Source of the DNA: a virus
Taxonomy: Duplodnaviria > Caudoviricetes
Length of the DNA stretch: 50,437 bases
Virus record (IMG/VR): IMGVR_UViG_3300032112_000026
Coordinates: 1-50,437 of that record
Direction: 5' to 3' (one strand)
A program made the translations under genes and the position numbers. A model generated the notes under the pieces. The model worked only from the letters and a program-made list of their open reading frames with translations, made no database searches and had not been told where the DNA came from. Positions 3,815-50,437 of this stretch are shown piece by piece (the first letter of the stretch is position 1; the number at the start of each line of letters is the position of its first letter).

Positions 3815-4813
3815 ATGAAGATATTAGAAGAATTATTTTTTATATTAATCTTTATTCTTTTTTTCCACATAAGTTTTGCTACTGAAACTATCACCTCTGG
3901 AACATCTACTTTTGGGACATCTACACAAATTGTAATAGAAGAACCATATATATCAGAAATTAAAATAATTCCTAATAAGACAGAAATTATAGCTGGAGAG
4001 AGTGTTTCTTTTTTTGTTGATATTATTTGGTCAGATGGAATAAAAAGAGAAACACCTTATAATATTCAATATAACAATGGAGTAATGACAGAAAAAGGTT
4101 GGATAGGAACACAAGCAGGAATTTCAGTTATTACTGTTTTTGCTGAAAATAAAGAAGCAAAAGTAGAAATAAAAGTTAAGCCAGCTCAATTAGAAAAAAT
4201 AAAATTTATGATGACAGAACCAGTAATATTATATGGTAAAAAATATTCTACTGATATTTTTAAATTTGAAGGAATGGATAAATTTCAAAATATGATTATA
4301 TTGAATAAGATAGAGTATAAAGTGCGAAAAAAGACCATAAGTCATTTAGCTCAATGGACAGGTAATGCAAATCCATTATCTGTTCTAAATGAGATAATTA
4401 AGACAGGAGCAATATGTAATTCAAAAGAGATATTATTTTTTGATACAGGTGAATATGAATTATTGGTAATAGTGGATGGAACTTTACAATCTACTTTCTC
4501 ATTTGAAGTTAAATTTGATAGATTTTCTGATGTAATAAGCTGGCAAGATTATAGAGTAGTAGATATTGATGTGGATAAGGGAAGCTTTATTGTAGAATAT
4601 ATCTTTCCTAGTTTTTCTGCAATTCAAAGCCATCTTACAGTTTTACCAGAATGGCTAAAAATATTTAAAGAAGGAACAATAATAGATAGAATACAAATAT
4701 TATGTTGGTGTCATTATAAAATATTAGAAGAAAGAGAAAGACTATTAAAAGATTTAGAATTTCAGGCATTAAAAAATCTATTATTAAAGCCACTTAAAGA
4801 ACAATTAAAATGA
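3815..4813 (+). CDS. Secreted Ig-like domain protein
   Basis: Signal peptide ending SFA-TE; Ig-like segment IKIIPNKTEIIAGESVSF...GISVITV...KVEIKVKP. Confidence 0.6.
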   Translation: MKILEELFFILIFILFFHISFATETITSGTSTFGTSTQIVIEEPYISEIKIIPNKTEIIAGESVSFFVDIIWSDGIKRETPYNIQYNNGVMTEKGWIGTQAGISVITVFAENKEAKVEIKVKPAQLEKIKFMMTEPVILYGKKYSTDIFKFEGMDKFQNMIILNKIEYKVRKKTISHLAQWTGNANPLSVLNEIIKTGAICNSKEILFFDTGEYELLVIVDGTLQSTFSFEVKFDRFSDVISWQDYRVVDIDVDKGSFIVEYIFPSFSAIQSHLTVLPEWLKIFKEGTIIDRIQILCWCHYKILEERERLLKDLEFQALKNLLLKPLKEQLK

Positions 4814-6012
4814 TAAGATTTATTAGTAAAGTAGTAATAATAGTAAGTATAACAATTTTACCTTCTATTTGTTTTTCAGCTGGAGGACAGATTTTAAATG
4901 TCACTAATATTATACAAGGTGGAAGTGCTACAGTTAGAGAAGATGGTTTTGATATAGCTTTTGGTAATGATATTGTTGGTTATAATTCTTTTAGAGCAAC
5001 TTGGACAACATCAGGCACAGCAACTATTTGGACTACAGTTCCTACATTAGGAACTGGAACTACAACTCATTATTTATATTATAATAATCCTACATCTATT
5101 GATAATAGTAGTTTTAGTGTAACATTTACAAAAGATTACCAAGAAATAGGATTGGTAGGAGTATGGCATTTTGATGAAGGAATAGGAACAACTGTAAATG
5201 ATAGTTCTGGTAATGGAAATACTGGAACATTATTTCCAGCGGATAATCCCCCTACTTGGCAAATTAATGATGGGGGACATTGGGATGGACAAACTAATAT
5301 TAGGTTTAACTCAGGATCTGCTTTAAGTTTAAATGGAACAAGTAGTTATATTAGAGTTACTAATTCAGCAAGTTTAAATCCTAATCTTATTTCAATGTCT
5401 GCCTGGATAAAGCCACAAACAGGAGTTGTTAATACAAGTAAAATAATTTCACGAGATTATAGAGGTGATGGAACTTGGAATAGTCCCTGGATTATTTATA
5501 CATTAGAGTATGGTTATGTAGAAATAACTACAGGAGGAGTAATAACTTCTTTAAATTTTTCTGGAGCTTCTTTAAATAATTGGCATTATTATGTTGGAAC
5601 TTATGATGGTGGAAATATTCGAATATATATTGATGGAGTAGAAGTAGCATCTACAGCAAAGACAGGAAATCTTGATTATTCAGTAACAACTTCAAATCTT
5701 GCAATTGGACAAAGGAGTCCACATTCATTAGGTGAATTTTTTCCTGGTGTTATTGATGAAGTTCGTATTTATAACCGAGCTTTATCACTAGCAGAAATAC
5801 AAGCATATTATGAAAGACGAAAATATGCAGGAGATGGAGTTACAATTACAGTAAGTTATGGAGCAGAGGAGAATAATCCAGGTAATATTTATCCAAATTT
5901 CCTTAAAAGGCGACCTATAATAATTACTAATTCAGGAAATATAATATTAACTAATTTTCAAGTTAGAATACTACTAAGAGTTGGTGCTAGTGGAATATTT
6001 ATATTAGATTAA
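4810..6012 (+). CDS. Secreted LamG/ConA-like lectin protein with DUF2341-like segments
   Basis: GLVGVWHFDEG.G..V.DSSGNGN, MSAWIKP, WHYYVGTYDG...IYIDG, IDEVRIYNRALS..EI are canonical LamG_3 motifs; signal peptide ending CFSA. Confidence 0.85.
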   Translation: MIRFISKVVIIVSITILPSICFSAGGQILNVTNIIQGGSATVREDGFDIAFGNDIVGYNSFRATWTTSGTATIWTTVPTLGTGTTTHYLYYNNPTSIDNSSFSVTFTKDYQEIGLVGVWHFDEGIGTTVNDSSGNGNTGTLFPADNPPTWQINDGGHWDGQTNIRFNSGSALSLNGTSSYIRVTNSASLNPNLISMSAWIKPQTGVVNTSKIISRDYRGDGTWNSPWIIYTLEYGYVEITTGGVITSLNFSGASLNNWHYYVGTYDGGNIRIYIDGVEVASTAKTGNLDYSVTTSNLAIGQRSPHSLGEFFPGVIDEVRIYNRALSLAEIQAYYERRKYAGDGVTITVSYGAEENNPGNIYPNFLKRRPIIITNSGNIILTNFQVRILLRVGASGIFILD

Positions 6013-7152: not shown

Positions 7153-7713
7153 ATGCAAGAGATACCCTTACAAAGTTGGGAAGGAGTAAAACTTGCTTTA
7201 TGGACTATTGGAGGTATAGGATTTTTTTCTTTAATTCTTCTTTTCCTTATTGCAGTAATTTTGAAGACATTAAAATTTAAGGAAGAAGCTGTTAAGATAG
7301 GATTCAAAATTTTTGGTAAAGAACTTGGAAATATAGAAATTGGTGCAAAACAAGAGAAATGGAATAATACTAATGAAATTGATAAAACAAAAGAGATTAT
7401 TTTAAAAGAAGTTAAAGAGATAATAGAAAAAAAAGATAAGGAAATTAAAGATACAATAAAGACAGGAAAACAGCAAAATGATAAAATAATAATTTCAAAA
7501 GATATTAATGAGTTAAAAGCATTAATAAAAGAGATAGTAGTAAATGAAAAAAAAGATATAGAAAAGATATATGAGCAAGTAGGTAATATTAATCAAATAT
7601 TAGGAGTAAAAGATATTTTAGTTAAAAAAAATAGGAGTGTTGATATTATTTTATGGATTTTTATTTGTATTTTAGTAATAGGAATAATAATAACTATTTT
7701 AATTTTTAAGTAG
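7153..7713 (+). CDS. Membrane protein with N- and C-terminal TM helices and a central coiled coil (lysis-associated?)
   Basis: RBS AAGGAGG; hydrophobic stretches at both ends; K/E-rich middle. Confidence 0.6.
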   Translation: MQEIPLQSWEGVKLALWTIGGIGFFSLILLFLIAVILKTLKFKEEAVKIGFKIFGKELGNIEIGAKQEKWNNTNEIDKTKEIILKEVKEIIEKKDKEIKDTIKTGKQQNDKIIISKDINELKALIKEIVVNEKKDIEKIYEQVGNINQILGVKDILVKKNRSVDIILWIFICILVIGIIITILIFK

Positions 7714-7724
7714 ATATAAAAGAT

Positions 7725-7825
7725 ATTGAAGCATCTAATCTATTAAAATAAGGATTGAAACAAGTATAATAATTTTATCTTCTATTAGTTTTCAGCACCT
7801 AATCCATTAAAACAAGGATTGAAAC
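7725..7825 (+). CRISPR. Minimal CRISPR-like array: two 37-nt repeats and one 27-nt spacer, no cas operon
   Basis: R1 7725-7761 ATTGAAGCATCTAATCTATTAAAATAAGGATTGAAAC; R2 7789-7825 TTTTCAGCACCTAATCCATTAAAACAAGGATTGAAAC (31/37 identical). The ATCC..AAAACAAGGATTGAAAC 3' end is typical of Cas6-processed type I-B/III repeats. Confidence 0.8.
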
Positions 7826-7847
7826 TATATTATAAAGAATTAATAAA

Positions 7848-8093
7848 ATGGATGAAAAATTAATATTTCAAAAATTAGAATTTTTTCAAACAGATAGCTT
7901 ACCACGAATTCATCAACGAATAGATGAGGTTAGAGAGGATATAAAAAGATTGGTAGATAAAGTAATTATTATAGATAAGAATCATTCAATAACAAAGACA
8001 CAAGTAGATTTTTTAAGTAAATTTTGTTGGTTAATTATTACTATGATAATTTCTGGATTTGGTGGAATAATTTTTTGGTTAATTAAGTTATAA
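7848..8093 (+). CDS. Putative holin (coiled coil plus C-terminal TM, XhlA-like architecture)
   Basis: 81 aa, single C-terminal TM, immediately upstream of the endolysin. Confidence 0.55.
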   Translation: MDEKLIFQKLEFFQTDSLPRIHQRIDEVREDIKRLVDKVIIIDKNHSITKTQVDFLSKFCWLIITMIISGFGGIIFWLIKL

Positions 8094-8160
8094 TGAAATA
8101 TTCATATTGATAAATTGACACAAAAGAAGATAAAAATCGAAGGAAATTTTCAGGTGAAAA
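8092..8160 (+). repeat. 69-bp dispersed repeat, copy A (degenerate)
   Basis: 60/69 identical to 32164-32232. Confidence 0.9.
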
Positions 8161-9023
8161 CATATGAAATTGCAAATAAGTTATTAGAAAAGGGACTACT
8201 TATTGGTAGTGATATTCAAGCAATTCAAGTAGCAATGAAACTACTTGGATTTATGTCTAATAATTATCTTCCGCAGTGTGATGGAAAATGGGGTAAAAAT
8301 ACAAGTAAAGCAATTCGGACATTTAATTGGGAAATATTTGGACGAGAAGAAGATAATACAGTTTCATATCAAAAAATTTCGGAATTATTATTAGATAAAA
8401 ATTGGTTTAAGATTCCTTTTGTAGAAAATTCAGATGAAGAAAATAAAAAAATAGTAAAATATATTGATAATCAGAAAGAAGTAATTATTAATGAATATAA
8501 GATACCATTTGATTTTTTACGAGCAATATTATGGCAGGAAACAGGATTAAAACATTATGATCTTGATGGGTTTTTATTTGTAGGATTAGATATAGAAGAA
8601 GATTATAAAGTGAAAAGTAGAGGATGGGGATTAGGGCAATATACAATTAAAAATCATCCACCAACAATAGAACAACAAAAAAATATAATAGAGCCTTTAA
8701 AAAATCTTGAATTTGTTATTAATCATTTAAAAGAGAAATTCAAATATTTTTGTAAGACAAATAGAGTTTGTATATATCTAAAAGATGATATACAATATTT
8801 ACGAAATTGTAAATATTGTATTGAAAATAGTCTTCGAGCTACTATTAAATTACCTCAAGCAAATTATCATCCAAAGGTTCAACAAGAAGGATATAAAGAT
8901 ATTCCTATGTTTAATAGGTGTGATTGGGTATTAGCAATAGAAAGATATAATGGAAGAGGTTCTAATGCTATTGCTTATCGGTATGAAGTATTGTGTAAAA
9001 TTTTAGGTCGAGAGGTAAGATAA
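8154..9023 (+). CDS. Endolysin: peptidoglycan-binding domain plus lysozyme/SLT-like domain
   Basis: GSDIQAIQ..M..LGF...DGKWG.NT..AIR.F (PG_binding_1); RAILWQETG catalytic Glu, GWGLGQY and AIERYNG motifs. Start is GTG 8154 (RBS GAAGGA) or TTG 8115. Confidence 0.8.
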   Translation: MKTYEIANKLLEKGLLIGSDIQAIQVAMKLLGFMSNNYLPQCDGKWGKNTSKAIRTFNWEIFGREEDNTVSYQKISELLLDKNWFKIPFVENSDEENKKIVKYIDNQKEVIINEYKIPFDFLRAILWQETGLKHYDLDGFLFVGLDIEEDYKVKSRGWGLGQYTIKNHPPTIEQQKNIIEPLKNLEFVINHLKEKFKYFCKTNRVCIYLKDDIQYLRNCKYCIENSLRATIKLPQANYHPKVQQEGYKDIPMFNRCDWVLAIERYNGRGSNAIAYRYEVLCKILGREVR

Positions 9024-9330: not shown

Positions 9331-9780
9331 ATGCGGCAGAAACAAAAATATGTTTCTTGTTATTTTGAACCTTCTAAAAGTGCTTATGAAAATATTATAG
9401 GTTTTATTCAACATTGTAAAAAATCTCTTGATATTTGTGCTTATTATCTTACAAATGATACAATAACACAGTTAATATTAGTGAAAAAAAATCAAGGAGT
9501 AAAAATAAGAATTCTTTGTGATGCTAAAAAAAGTAAAAGTGAAGGAAGTGATATTAAAAAGCTTTTAGATAATAGAATAAATGTAAAAGTAGATAATTCT
9601 GGTGTTAATTTAATGCATAATAAATTTTTAATAGGAGATAAAAAAGCGATTATGACAGGTTCTTTTAATTTCACTATGAATGCTTTAAAAAATGCTGAAA
9701 ATATTGTGATAATAAGATTATCATCTATTGTGAAAGATTATTTAAAAGAATTTAATAGATTATGGGAACAGGGTAAATAG
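9331..9780 (+). CDS. Phospholipase D superfamily protein, single HKD (Nuc/Zucchini-like)
   Basis: MHNKFLIGDKKAIMTGSFNFT..A..NAEN matches HxK(x4)D(x6)GSxN. Confidence 0.92.
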   Translation: MRQKQKYVSCYFEPSKSAYENIIGFIQHCKKSLDICAYYLTNDTITQLILVKKNQGVKIRILCDAKKSKSEGSDIKKLLDNRINVKVDNSGVNLMHNKFLIGDKKAIMTGSFNFTMNALKNAENIVIIRLSSIVKDYLKEFNRLWEQGK

Positions 9781-9898: not shown

Positions 9899-10087
9899 AT
9901 GATTTATCTTTATATAATCTTGATATTATTATGGTTAGTTTTTAAGATAATTTGTTATTATAAAGATAGTGATATATGGGATAAAACTTTTATTTTTTTG
10001 CCTTTATTTTTTGATTTTTTCTTCATTATAATTACTATATGGATAGTTAATTTTTTAGAAAATAGAAGAAATAATTATGACATTTGA
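9899..10087 (+). CDS. Small two-TM membrane protein (holin-like?)
   Basis: 62 aa with two hydrophobic segments; overlaps the lipase start. Confidence 0.45.
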   Translation: MIYLYIILILLWLVFKIICYYKDSDIWDKTFIFLPLFFDFFFIIITIWIVNFLENRRNNYDI

Positions 10088-10826
10088 TAGAAAAATTGCA
10101 AAAGAATGTGCATTATTATGCAATATAATTTATAAAGGTTATACAGAGATAAAAGAAATTTTACCTCAAGAATATTTATTACTTGAATATTTTGATAAAC
10201 AGAATACTCAAGCAATGATAGTGCAAAATAAAGAGAAAAAGAATTTTATAGTATTTCGAGGGACAGAAAAAGGAGTAATAGGTGATTTAATTACAGATGT
10301 TAAAGTTAGAAAAGAAGAAGTAAATATAGGTGAAGTTCATAGAGGATTTTTGCAGGCTTATAATCAAATTAAAAATGAGATAGCTAAAATTAGTCATAGA
10401 TTAAATAATATATATATTACAGGACATAGTCTTGGTGGAGCATTGGCAACTCTTAGTGCATGGCATTTAACTTTTTGTGTAGGAATTATAATAGATAGTA
10501 TTTACACTTTTGGTAGTCCTCGTATAGGTAATAAAGAATTTGTTATAAACTATGATTTGAATTTAAAGAGTATAACTTTTAGGGTAGTAAATAATTGTGA
10601 TATAGTTACAAGAGTTCCTACACGATTAACTGGATATAATCATGTAGGGCAATTAATATATATTGATAGGGAGGGTAGATTTCATTTAGAATTAGAAGGA
10701 GATAGTCTTACTTGGTGGGCAACTTTTTGGGATAGAGTAAAGGGTAGATTAGAAGATTTTGCACATCAAAAGTTATTTGGTGGAATAAGTGACCATGCGA
10801 TAGAGAATTATTATAACTTATGTTAA
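10077..10826 (+). CDS. Class 3 lipase (alpha/beta hydrolase)
   Basis: IVFRGTE, VHRGF, ITGHSLGGALATL, YTFGSPRIGN, NNCDIVTRVP and DHAI give an intact Ser-Asp-His triad. Confidence 0.95.
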   Translation: MTFDRKIAKECALLCNIIYKGYTEIKEILPQEYLLLEYFDKQNTQAMIVQNKEKKNFIVFRGTEKGVIGDLITDVKVRKEEVNIGEVHRGFLQAYNQIKNEIAKISHRLNNIYITGHSLGGALATLSAWHLTFCVGIIIDSIYTFGSPRIGNKEFVINYDLNLKSITFRVVNNCDIVTRVPTRLTGYNHVGQLIYIDREGRFHLELEGDSLTWWATFWDRVKGRLEDFAHQKLFGGISDHAIENYYNLC

Positions 10827-21830: not shown

Positions 21831-22370
21831 TTAAATTACTTCTAAAAAAAGAGGTAGTTCTTTTATAAAAAACCATTCCCAACTATGGGATTTTCCCTCA
21901 ATTTTTCTTATAAATTCTTGTTTTTCCTTATTAGAAATAGAAGAAGATTTGGAAAGAGAGTCAAATAGAAAAAAATGGGTTGTTTGTAAATATTTAGCAT
22001 ATGTTTGTATATATGTCTTAAATGGAGCGTCACAACTTTCTCTCCATCCTACATAAGTAATAGTGCGATATGCATTTCTGTAATACCATACATATGAGAG
22101 CACCTTTAGAAAATCACTATTAAAGTTAGGAACAAAAAGAGATAAAAATACATTTGAAGTGATTATAGAAAGAGGACTTTTAGCTTGTTGTTTTTGGATA
22201 TATTGATATAACTTTTCTATATTAAGTTCTTTTTTAGAAGAAGAATCTGAAAAATATCTTTCTATTTGATTTTTAATGGTAATTGACTCACAACAACTCC
22301 CAATTAAAAGCTCTTCCCAATCTCTCATTTTTTCCCTCCATTTCCTATTTTTAAAAAGGATTGTGGTCAA
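21831..22370 (-). CDS. Hypothetical protein overlapping the csx3-like gene
   Basis: 179-aa ORF; start uncertain. Confidence 0.5.
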   Translation of the reverse strand: MTTILFKNRKWREKMRDWEELLIGSCCESITIKNQIERYFSDSSSKKELNIEKLYQYIQKQQAKSPLSIITSNVFLSLFVPNFNSDFLKVLSYVWYYRNAYRTITYVGWRESCDAPFKTYIQTYAKYLQTTHFFLFDSLSKSSSISNKEKQEFIRKIEGKSHSWEWFFIKELPLFLEVI

Positions 22371-22593
22371 AAATTGTAATTTCTCCTATTACAGGAGAAG
22401 TGTACTTTAGACTTTTTACTTTTCCATGTATTGCATGAGCTATAACAAGATATAGCCATATAGGAGCTTGTCCTGTAAGGATTATATCATTACTAGAGCC
22501 TATAATTTTATTAACTCTTTTTATATATTGAGGAATATCGCTAATCTTAGCAGTTTCCCCATATAAAGTTTTGATATTAATTGTAATCATCAT
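22351..22593 (-). CDS. csx3: Csx3/Crn3-like protein (cyclic oligoadenylate ring nuclease family)
   Basis: IILTGQAPIWLYLVIAHAIHG...YTSP.IG.I.IFDH aligns with the Csx3 core as I recall it (VVISGRGPIWL..LAH..H...YDPRLG.VVV.SH); RBS AAGGAG. Confidence 0.75.
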   Translation of the reverse strand: MMITINIKTLYGETAKISDIPQYIKRVNKIIGSSNDIILTGQAPIWLYLVIAHAIHGKVKSLKYTSPVIGEITIFDHNPF

Positions 22594-32163: not shown

Positions 32164-32232
32164 AATGAAACATTCATGCCGATAAATCGGCACAAAAGAG
32201 GATGAAAATCGAAGGAGATTTTCAGGTGAAAA
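32164..32232 (+). repeat. 69-bp dispersed repeat, copy B, with palindrome TGCCGAT-AA-ATCGGCA
   Basis: 60/69 identical to 8092-8160. Confidence 0.9.
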
Positions 32233-34489: not shown

Positions 34490-34614
34490 ATAGTAAATTT
34501 ATATCTATAATATAAATAAAATATAAATATATTTGAGATATTAAAAATAGATAAAAAAATTAAGAAATTTAAAATAAAAAGTTAGAAAAAAAGAAAAATA
34601 AAATTACTTTTAAT

Positions 34615-34711
34615 ATAGCAAAAAGCTGGCAAATTGATAGCAAAAAGCTGGCAAATTGATAGCAAAAAGCTGGCAAATTGATAGCAAAAAGCTGGCAAAT
34701 TGATAGCAAAA
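34615..34711 (+). repeat. Iteron array: four perfect tandem 22-mers ATAGCAAAAAGCTGGCAAATTG plus a partial copy
   Basis: Units at 34615, 34637, 34659 and 34681, preceded by a ~120-bp very AT-rich tract, upstream of the initiator gene. Confidence 0.9.
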
Positions 34712-34773
34712 TCTTAGCAAAAAGTTAGTAAAAAGATAAAAATGAAAAAGTCAAAAACTGAGGAGTAAAAGAA

Positions 34774-35724
34774 GTGAAAAGTTATAAAGAAGATAGTCGA
34801 CCGAGCTTTCAGTTCTACCCAGATGATTGGCTAAGTGAAGCAGGTTTATCTTTATGTTCTTTAGCTGCACAAGGATTATGGATAAAAATGTTATGTTTTA
34901 TGTGGAAATCTATTCCAAGAGGATATTTAATGGTAAATGGTAAGCAAATGAATAGCAAAGATTTAGCAAAATTATGTGGGGAAGAAGAAAAATATATTAA
35001 TGAATTATTATTAGAGCTTGAAAATAACCAAATATTCTCAAAAGATGAAAATGGTATTATTTATAGCCGAAGAATGCAACGAGAAGAAAAAATAAGAAAA
35101 ATAAGAGTTATATCTGGACGACAAGGAGGTTTTACAAAAGCAAGAAAATATCAAAAAAATAAAGATATAGCAAAAAGCTGGCAAATTGATAGCAAAACTA
35201 ATAGCAAAAGCTTAGCAAAAAATATAGCAAAAAGCTGGCAAGTTGCTGGAGAAGAAGAAGAAGAAGAAGAAGGAGTAGAAGTAGAAGAAGAAATAGAAGT
35301 AGAAAAAGAAATAGAAGTAGAAATAGAAAGTAATATAGCTAGAAATAATATAGCTAATTCTAAATTAAAAAAGAAAGAAAAAGAAAAAAAAGAAAATTGG
35401 TTTGAAAAAATTTGGGTTTTATATCCAAATAAGGTAGGGAAAAAAGAAGCTTTAAGACATTTTAAAACTTCTATAAAAACAGAAGAAGATTATAAAAATA
35501 TTAATATTGCCCTTATTAATTATCTTAAAAGTGAACGGGTAGTAAAAGGATTTGTTCAAAATGGTTCAACTTGGTTTAATAATTGGCAAGATTGGATAAA
35601 TCCTACTAAACAACAATTAGGAATAAAAGAACAAGAAAAAGATAATAATTATTTTACAAAAGGTTTTACTCAAATAGAGGAGGGAATAAAAGATGACTAT
35701 TTTACAAGAGGTTTTGAAGGATAA
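34774..35724 (+). CDS. Phage replication initiator (lambda O / replisome-organiser-like)
   Basis: RPSFQFYPDDWL......CSLAAQGLWIKMLC.MW N-domain; internal iterons; FEKIW.LYP.KVGKKEA C-domain. Confidence 0.85.
   Translation: MKSYKEDSRPSFQFYPDDWLSEAGLSLCSLAAQGLWIKMLCFMWKSIPRGYLMVNGKQMNSKDLAKLCGEEEKYINELLLELENNQIFSKDENGIIYSRRMQREEKIRKIRVISGRQGGFTKARKYQKNKDIAKSWQIDSKTNSKSLAKNIAKSWQVAGEEEEEEEGVEVEEEIEVEKEIEVEIESNIARNNIANSKLKKKEKEKKENWFEKIWVLYPNKVGKKEALRHFKTSIKTEEDYKNINIALINYLKSERVVKGFVQNGSTWFNNWQDWINPTKQQLGIKEQEKDNNYFTKGFTQIEEGIKDDYFTRGFEG
35167..35245 (+). repeat. Intragenic iterons (likely origin)
   Basis: Exact 22-mer at 35167-35188, a 1-mismatch copy at 35224-35245, and TAGCAAAA half-sites between them. 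Confidence 0.8.
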
Positions 35725-46902: not shown

Positions 46903-47055
46903 ATGGCAAAAAACATTAATTCACCAGTAATAGGAAAAGAACCAGAAATACAGGGATTAGAACCTTTGAAGAGAGAAGTGAAAGGAAACATTAATTCACC
47001 AGTAATAGGAAAAGAACCAGAAATACAGGGATTAGAACCTTTGAAGAAGGAGTAA
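46903..47055 (+). CDS. 50-aa peptide built from an exact internal duplication
   Basis: RBS AAGGAGGT; NINSPVIGKEPEIQGLEPLK occurs twice. Confidence 0.65.
   Translation: MAKNINSPVIGKEPEIQGLEPLKREVKGNINSPVIGKEPEIQGLEPLKKE
46911..47047 (+). repeat. 62-bp perfect direct repeat, 75-bp period
   Basis: 46911-46972 equals 46986-47047. Confidence 0.95.
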
Positions 47056-50329: not shown

Positions 50330-50437
50330 CCTGAAATCGGCAAGTAAAGGCGACTATTAACTGTAACTTTTATCACCTCAACAGGTTAATGTTCATACAT
50401 TTTGATAAAAAATCTGCATTTTTGGAATACACATAAC
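50330..50437 (+). ncRNA. Candidate structured RNA spanning the window junction (50330 to end, then 1-54)
   Basis: CCTGAAATCGGCAAGT (50330-50345) is the perfect reverse complement of 39-54; internal stem and possible pseudoknot. Confidence 0.45.

Follow-up and report, generated by a model that had tools for sequence, protein, structure and literature searches.

The window, by which we mean the whole 50,437-nt stretch of DNA that was analysed, is one virus record with portal, terminase, capsid and tail-type genes. In its late region, on the strand of all the late genes, a pair of CRISPR-type repeats (R1 and R2) lies between an upstream late gene and the lysis genes. The features to which we refer, with the guide and repeat boundaries that are argued for below, are these:

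4810 to 6012, + strand: gene for a LamG/DUF2341 virion-type protein (Pfam Laminin_G_3, E 5e-28; PHROG virion structural protein, E 1e-16)
4845 to 4880, + strand: the phage's own protospacer-like site, 36 nt, in mRNA sense, 35 nt into the LamG gene, with 5' flank AGT
7153 to 7713, + strand: upstream late gene with two hydrophobic stretches by eye and no family match; its stop is 11 nt before R1
7725 to 7761, + strand: R1, a full-length degenerate CRISPR-DR7-type repeat, 37 nt, with a weakened stem; it would supply the 8-nt 5' handle (7754-7761)
7762 to 7796, + strand: guide, 35 nt, spanning the apparent spacer (27 nt) and the 8 nt with which the apparent R2 begins, as marked out by the own-gene match
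7797 to 7825, + strand: remainder of R2, 29 nt, with hairpin and handle intact (identity to the Desantisbacteria repeat, Rfam, folding)
7848 to 8093, + strand: small membrane protein, putatively holin-like (phrog_1193 'hemolysin', E 4e-8)
8115 to 9023, + strand: probable endolysin, peptidoglycan-binding and SLT/muramidase-like (ESM Atlas feature matches of 0.94-0.97 to PG_binding_1, SLT and muramidase clusters; no Pfam or PHROG match)
22351 to 22593, - strand: Csx3/Crn3-fold protein, candidate cA4 ring nuclease (Pfam Cas_csx3, above cut-off)

The end of R2 is 22 nt from the ATG of the holin-like gene. The late region also contains a phospholipase-D-like gene (9331-9780) and a class 3 lipase gene (10077-10826), the latter found as well in the phage contigs of a genome (G011) described below.

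The two repeats, R1 at 7725-7761 and the apparent R2 at 7789-7825, are identical at 31 of 37 positions, leave 27 nt between them (7762-7788), and share the 3' end ATTGAAAC. A pair as good as this at a spacing of 55-85 nt occurred in none of 50 block-shuffled windows, while the octamer ATTGAAAC by itself is not enriched (5 found, 3.67 expected). R2 passes the Rfam model CRISPR-DR7 (RF01320) with 45.9 bits against a gathering cut-off of 37, and R1 was not reported at that cut-off. Both repeats form the same stem, but that of R1 contains a U-G wobble and is weaker (-2.0 vs. -4.2 kcal/mol), which confirms what the earlier note had said of the repeat pair and of a hairpin degenerate in R1. A contig from sequencing run X1 covers 7353-7827 with 0 differences to the window, and this run may be the window's own source. 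We found no cas operon among the 70 ORFs scanned, only the one Csx3-like gene. The 11 nt between the upstream stop and R1 leave no room for a leader, and the absence of a promoter-bearing leader of the SPV type fits the leaderless phage type of mini-array. The locus is a real two-repeat CRISPR array, above chance, that lacks a Cas operon, and the Rfam match, the ORF scan and the gene neighbours bear out the proposal of a host-type CRISPR mini-array in the late/lysis region.

The apparent spacer matches the LamG gene of the phage itself at 24 of 27 positions (4845-4871), and among 1500 shuffled spacers a single one matched as well. If one gap is allowed, the alignment continues through the first 8 nt of R2 and reaches 32 identities over 36 target bases (4845-4880), with 3 substitutions. 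The 35-nt guide scored 27 against this site, compared to 21 for the best of 150 shuffles, and a continuation of the match over 8 nt arose by chance in 156 of 200,000 trials. The site is upstream of the array, at a distance of 2917 nt; it lies within the stretch for the hydrophobic N-terminus of the LamG protein, which resembles a signal peptide by eye, and the first 8 guide positions match it. We regard it as close to certain that the guide derives from a gene of the phage's own lineage. Duplication of random phage DNA into a neo-CRISPR was rejected because the repeat is of host type. Self-matching as a trait of the repeat family was likewise ruled out, as none of 23 viral loci with this CRISPR-DR7-type repeat reached a match of at least 21/27 within its own flanks.

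Because the target match carries on through the opening 8 nt of the apparent R2, the unit is better read as a repeat (37 nt), a guide (35 nt) and a repeat probably truncated at its 5' end (29 nt). Likely, R2 lost about 8 nt of its 5' end by a deletion between two copies of a 3-nt motif (microhomology); indeed, the start of R1 resembles that of the commonest host repeat and the start of R2 does not. The RNA from cut to cut is predicted to be 64 nt instead of 73, or 9 nt shorter. In arrays that share the repeat core, 410 of 414 spacers (299 distinct) are 34-41 nt long, with a mode of 36 and none below 34, and the remaining four are 51-53 nt. Thus, since the own-gene match runs 8 nt into R2, the guide has a length (about 35 nt) that is normal for a CRISPR-DR7-type repeat, and it appears to be a normal-length spacer that lost one T. 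The spacer had been described as shorter than usual, which does not hold for a guide fused into its second repeat, and the TATAAT within it, taken as a link to a promoter, is produced by a single C/T difference to the LamG coding sequence. In four other loci (L066, L073, L076 and L086), degenerate arrays have inserts of 51-53 nt with inverted repeats, which are not ordinary spacers. Some other viral loci hold two-repeat arrays of this repeat family with spacers of 33-36 nt (L149/L164, L162/L166, L163 and L169), and none of these matches its own flanks.

The repeat-database search suggested in the earlier note identified R2 as a host-type CRISPR-DR7 repeat. Its last 28 nt are identical to all 20 repeats of an array (L001) in Ca. 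Desantisbacteria CG2_30_40_21, and are found exactly in two GTDB genomes, as this 20-repeat array and as one solitary copy in another MAG. The full-length phage variant was found in 0 host arrays of the metagenome contigs, and the arrays that we fetched do not have the exact 5' part of the phage repeats. In run X2, from the same sample, a contig of 103 nt contains two copies of an R1-like repeat, differing at 3 of 36 nt, on either side of an insert of 37 letters that does not match the phage. The host cannot be assigned from the repeat by itself, because 45 metagenome loci also contain its core, joined to many different 5' ends. Related repeats occur in 5 of 25 genomes of the Desantisbacteria phylum, and 1 of the 25 (G011) contains contigs syntenic with the phage (terminase 57-59%, portal 50-51%, capsid 50%) that carry a LamG ortholog (31%). 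Together, the repeat, these related phage contigs and the Csx3-like gene give the phage a likely host phylum, Ca. Desantisbacteria. A conserved position of the array in this relative was considered and rejected: the repeat is absent from the matching region of the G011 phage contigs (best 18/29), which have other lysis genes and no endolysin match.

The effectors available in this phylum are of more than one type. A close repeat variant adjoins Cas8b in genome G013, and genome G012 has type I-B; genome G001 has III-B and I-C, with no I-B Cas7 above cut-off, and one metagenome array adjoins Cas10. Types I-B and III are both possible effectors for the phage repeat. We also note that in G011 an RT-Cas1 fusion and cas2 adjoin a Csx3-like gene (L143, contig C365), and that an element of about 2 kb is joined to an array with the Desantisbacteria repeat (L062/L082). 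Several host spacers match this element, and one spacer of the L062 array itself matches it at 36/36 with a TTA flank; either the element lies inside a host array or it carries an array.

We asked whether the carrier would be exposed to its own guide. Supplementary file 2 of Vink 2021 (PMC8482600) has 18 entries whose repeats share their final 15 nt with the phage repeats; their PAMs are TTA (13), TTn (3), TTG (1) and TTTA (1), 15 of them are I-B, and none of the 18 is identical to the phage repeats. Six protospacers of Desantisbacteria-repeat spacers, ranging from imperfect to perfect, had the flanks TTA, TTG, CTG, ATA, CTC and TAC, with T at -2 in five of six, a thin sample that comes from one small element. 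The flank of the own site, AGT, lacks the PAM of this repeat family (TTA/TTN), and the guide has mRNA sense; in PMC7515739, a spacer of this sense conferred no protection in a type III system. Because the own site lacks a PAM and the guide is in mRNA sense, the carrier phage is predicted to be safe from targeting by type I-B as well as type III.

The reading frame constrains what a related gene could offer. The first guide base shares a codon with PAM positions -2 and -1, and TTA or TTG in that codon would be a stop; therefore an intact sister gene could offer only TTT or TTC, unless the spacer slipped by 1 nt. At the own site, the codon at -2 to +1 is GTA, one base from TTA.

The Csx3-like ORF, which lies in the leftward block of small genes, is above the Pfam cut-off and below that of NCBIfam (29.4 bits, cut-off 55.4). 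Its predicted fold (pLDDT 89) has Csx3 proteins as its top seven Foldseek rows (E 0.009-0.07), and superimposes on the fold of AfCsx3 with a Z score of 8.2 (VIA; rmsd 1.8, 73 aligned). The protein is 53% identical to a gene in the type III-B locus of G001 and 49-56% identical to genes of the host phylum, in which 7 of 25 genomes have matches. The catalytic residues of AfCsx3 are H57, H60, H80, D69 and R71 (PMC7371418); H53, H56 and H77 of the phage protein align with the three histidines and are invariant in 6 of 6 sequences, while D69 and R71 are unmatched in a pairwise alignment that is weak. Thus, the Archaeoglobus fulgidus Crn3/Csx3 (PMC7371418) is the best fold match and shares the aligned histidines with the phage protein, which differs in the two unmatched residues and in being phage-borne. 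For a survey of 28,114 phage genomes, PMC12409355 names AcrIII-1, Csx20 and Csx16, and Crn3 is not among the families given. The phage protein is a candidate ring nuclease of the Crn3 family, a family not found among those surveyed genomes in that account. If active, a Crn3 carried by a phage would bring one more family of ring nucleases to the means by which viruses counter type III systems.

For the array itself, we tentatively favor a leaderless single-spacer mini-array that is, or was until it began to fade, a weapon against sister phages, a reading to which we give somewhat less than an even chance. Host Cas6 would cut the guide unit out of late mRNA, if the array is co-transcribed with the late genes and processed; a host type I-B Cascade would presumably load the 35-nt guide; and the loaded guide would attack an allele with a PAM in kin of the phage, supposing that such a sister exists, with the PAM-less copy in the carrier predicted to be spared. 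We place this reading as high as we do since the layout agrees with published cases, with a single spacer, the absence of a cas operon, a host-type repeat, and an own site nearby with point changes and an indel. The same features (spacer number, host repeat, nearby target, altered own site) are given in PMC6858448, which also states that phage mini-arrays lack leaders. As for the effector, I-B systems are present in the likely host phylum, one of them immediately next to a close variant of the repeat. The normal guide length, the predicted protection of the carrier and the syntenic phage contigs of G011 also speak for this reading.

The interviral mini-arrays of SPV1 and SPV2 (Medvedeva 2019, PMC6858448) have one spacer, no cas operon and a host-type repeat; the spacer derives from a gene close by in their own virus lineage, and the own site is altered. 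The present locus shares these features, with a single spacer (such arrays have one or two), no virus cas operon, an altered own site, and the target near the array. The lack of a leader is shared with the phage mini-arrays of Faure 2019, as summarised in PMC6858448, PMC7099407 and PMC11656645, but not with the SPV arrays, which have leaders. Further differences from interviral mini-arrays are that no targeted relative was found here, that the repeats are not identical, that the second repeat is 5'-truncated and fused to the guide, and that none of the guide substitutions is synonymous and one further change is a loss that would shift the frame. Like the repeats of Rfam CRISPR-DR7 (RF01320), a type I-B/III family, R2 has the hairpin and 3' handle; the exact 5' part of the phage repeats is in none of the fetched arrays.

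We looked for the targeted sister in several ways. The repeat pattern, the spacer and protospacer patterns, the capsid and LamG proteins and their alignments revealed no sister phage in IMG/VR, and no short fragment was found, with tools that may omit records very near the window. The nearest LamG relatives are 38-46% identical with unlike N-termini, and the capsid relatives 50-51% identical. Annotated phages and plasmids gave chance-level matches only (E 0.04-0.6), and the best of 414 host spacers matched the phage at 27/35. The collections searched returned no sister and no better-matching target, and the defining target is therefore unseen.

Moreover, the array looks worn, with a weak R1 hairpin and a frameshifting loss in its spacer. 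R1 differs from the Desantisbacteria repeat at six positions, four of which (one G/A, three C/T) are not shared by the intact part of R2. The guide substitutions relative to the own gene are T/I, P/S and C/S, of which none is synonymous and two are C/T, and the 1-nt loss, which would frameshift the LamG gene, cannot stem from an intact gene. Altogether, the changes look like drift of the array and not an allele difference (the frameshifting loss, 0/3 synonymous, 2/3 C/T as in R1), although the non-synonymous point is weak by itself in a stretch that is signal-peptide-like. The third-position share in distant orthologs (457/1040) is so saturated that it cannot be used as a prior. In context, the R1 hairpin has a predicted probability of 0.00-0.08, as low as that of only 2/187, 4/181 and 26/189 host repeats at three flank sizes; the R2 hairpin, at about 0.8, is ordinary among host repeats. 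With a stem predicted to form less well than in almost any host repeat, R1 might fail to release the guide, but Cas6 may refold a weak R1 stem. Further points count against a I-B weapon directed at sister phages: the reading frame limits the PAMs open to an intact sister gene, G001 shows III-B and I-C but no I-B Cas7 above cut-off, the Csx3-like gene points to type III, for which the guide strand is wrong, and a position in the late operon would be poor timing for superinfection exclusion.

An alternative is that the working part of the locus is R2, once a solitary repeat of the Racr kind, to which a self spacer was added by host Cas1-Cas2 or by recombination and survived only because it is PAM-less and sense-oriented, as expected of a harmless self-spacer. 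Cas6 would cut R2 in abundant late mRNA, and the resulting non-targeting, crRNA-like RNAs would sequester Cas6 and subunits of the effector, alongside the Csx3-like protein. We consider such a decoy somewhat unlikely. The 29 nt of R2 have 0 changes compared to 8 of 73 nt in R1 and spacer, and R2 folds like an ordinary repeat, but the difference is not significant (Fisher P 0.06, with ancestral state presumed). In this repeat family, 16 of 23 viral loci have one repeat only, some of them cut off by contig ends, and 7 have two, but here R1, 84% identical and 27 nt away, breaks the rule of SRUFinder that a solitary repeat has no partial repeat above 70% within 100 nt (PMC10651486). The phage has a Csx3-fold gene, but this gene is 14.5 kb from the array, among whose neighbours are late and lysis genes; moreover, insertion of a spacer without a leader has to be assumed. 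Promoter-like sites are not above chance (12 against 9.6; 61 against 56.9), with the strong consensus promoters of the phage located elsewhere, and an internal promoter made up of R1 and the TATAAT of the spacer was rejected, as it amounts to one 10/12 site in a region at chance level. The Racr units of Camara-Wilpert 2023 (PMC10651486) are similar in having an intergenic host-type repeat, comparable to R2 with its intact hairpin and handle, and in that the phage also has a candidate anti-CRISPR enzyme; they differ from the present locus, which has two repeats and a real spacer, no clear promoter of its own, and a candidate enzyme that is not adjacent. A phage with RecT, SSB, amidase and tail endopeptidase genes and one solitary DR7-type repeat (L053/L057/L158) is itself a Racr candidate.

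The same wear would be expected of a neutral scar, a captured or once-useful array fragment with no present role that is being lost, which we judge unlikely. The changes in R1 are of the kinds seen most often when host repeats decay (C>T and G>A, which make up 13 of 35 changes among 18 variants), the 5' end of R2 is deleted, and the related G011 contigs do without the repeat, but neither handle nor the hairpin of R2 is damaged, the guide came out of the deletion with 35 nt, and its first 8 positions still match the own gene. We think it very unlikely that the unit controls the phage's own late genes, whether through a Cas6 cut in late mRNA 30 nt ahead of the holin-like start, which would alter the expression of lysis genes in hosts with CRISPR, or through Cascade parking on the partly matched LamG site. 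Although the seed matches the own gene, the PAM-less own site argues against Cascade binding. The short distance from R2 to the first ATG of the lysis module has parallels in 5 of 23 viral loci (4 distinct), where a repeat lies 10-27 nt before a same-strand start, and in L002, L039 and L054/L055, but intergenic gaps are short anyway, and the genes behind those other repeats are unrelated or of unassigned function. On both cellular and viral contigs, there are DR7-type repeats, solitary or the last of an array, that lie 0-27 nt ahead of a start codon on their own strand (L002:5936-5972, L039, L054/L055, L148, L153, L155/L160 and L157), the L002 repeat being placed before an EcoRI-type methylase.

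The proposal that the spacer guides the host effector to a cas promoter, in the manner of Cracr or CreR, is not supported, and we give it hardly any weight. A degenerate R1, a cut-to-cut RNA of 64 instead of 73 nt and the existence of I-B Cracr candidates (bioRxiv 10.1101/2024.10.29.618823) speak for it, but the best match of the spacer is the phage's own coding sequence, which explains 32 of 36 nt. In 20 cas-bearing loci (195 kb) from the likely host phylum and from related arrays, which stand in for the true host, no PAM-flanked intergenic seed was longer than 8 nt, a length reached or exceeded in 203 of 300 shuffles, so the search of these loci gave no seed above chance. None of the 25 phylum genomes contained the spacer within 3 mismatches, and the best match in 173 fetched loci was 21/27. 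The phage unit shares a degenerate first repeat and a shorter processed unit with Cracr, CreR and CreA (bioRxiv 10.1101/2024.10.29.618823; Shmakov 2023, bioRxiv 10.1101/2023.03.03.530964), but nearly the full length of its guide corresponds to phage coding DNA, in place of a short PAM-flanked promoter seed, and no matching host mini-array was seen for it.

A more speculative combination, which we think quite unlikely, is that R2 acts as a Cas6 cutting site at the head of the lysis genes, coupling lysis timing to immune decoying, with a captured Crn3 ring nuclease as back-up. In CRISPR-armed hosts, the handle-bearing lysis transcript would be loaded on or masked by Cas proteins, and the solitary DR7-type repeats just before starts in other viruses would be the same switch. 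A search of one literature collection for self-matching phage mini-arrays, Desantisbacteria viruses, slipped spacers and Cas6 processing of phage mRNA turned up no report of the locus or of this idea, and no RNA runs holding the array region are listed.

If the anti-sister mini-array is the correct reading, phage-versus-phage mini-arrays extend to an uncultured bacterial phylum, with one of them caught in decay. Its fusion of spacer and repeat, through which a guide of normal length passes for a short regulatory one, would be a practical warning for surveys that call Cracr or CreR by spacer length.

Other repeated elements were noted in the window. A palindromic intergenic motif of 40-70 nt, REP- or MITE-like, recurs at 8092-8160 and 32164-32232 and at 13-54 and 50330-50371; contig depth is high at 8119-8159, and the copy at 32150-32245 matches 8 of 25 host-phylum genomes, at up to 9 places in each. 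An exact 62-nt direct repeat at a spacing of 75 nt (46911-47047) is partly present in the G011 relative. Tandem repeats of 22 nt lie before and inside the replication initiator gene (34571-34746 and 35145-35265) and resemble the iterons of an origin.
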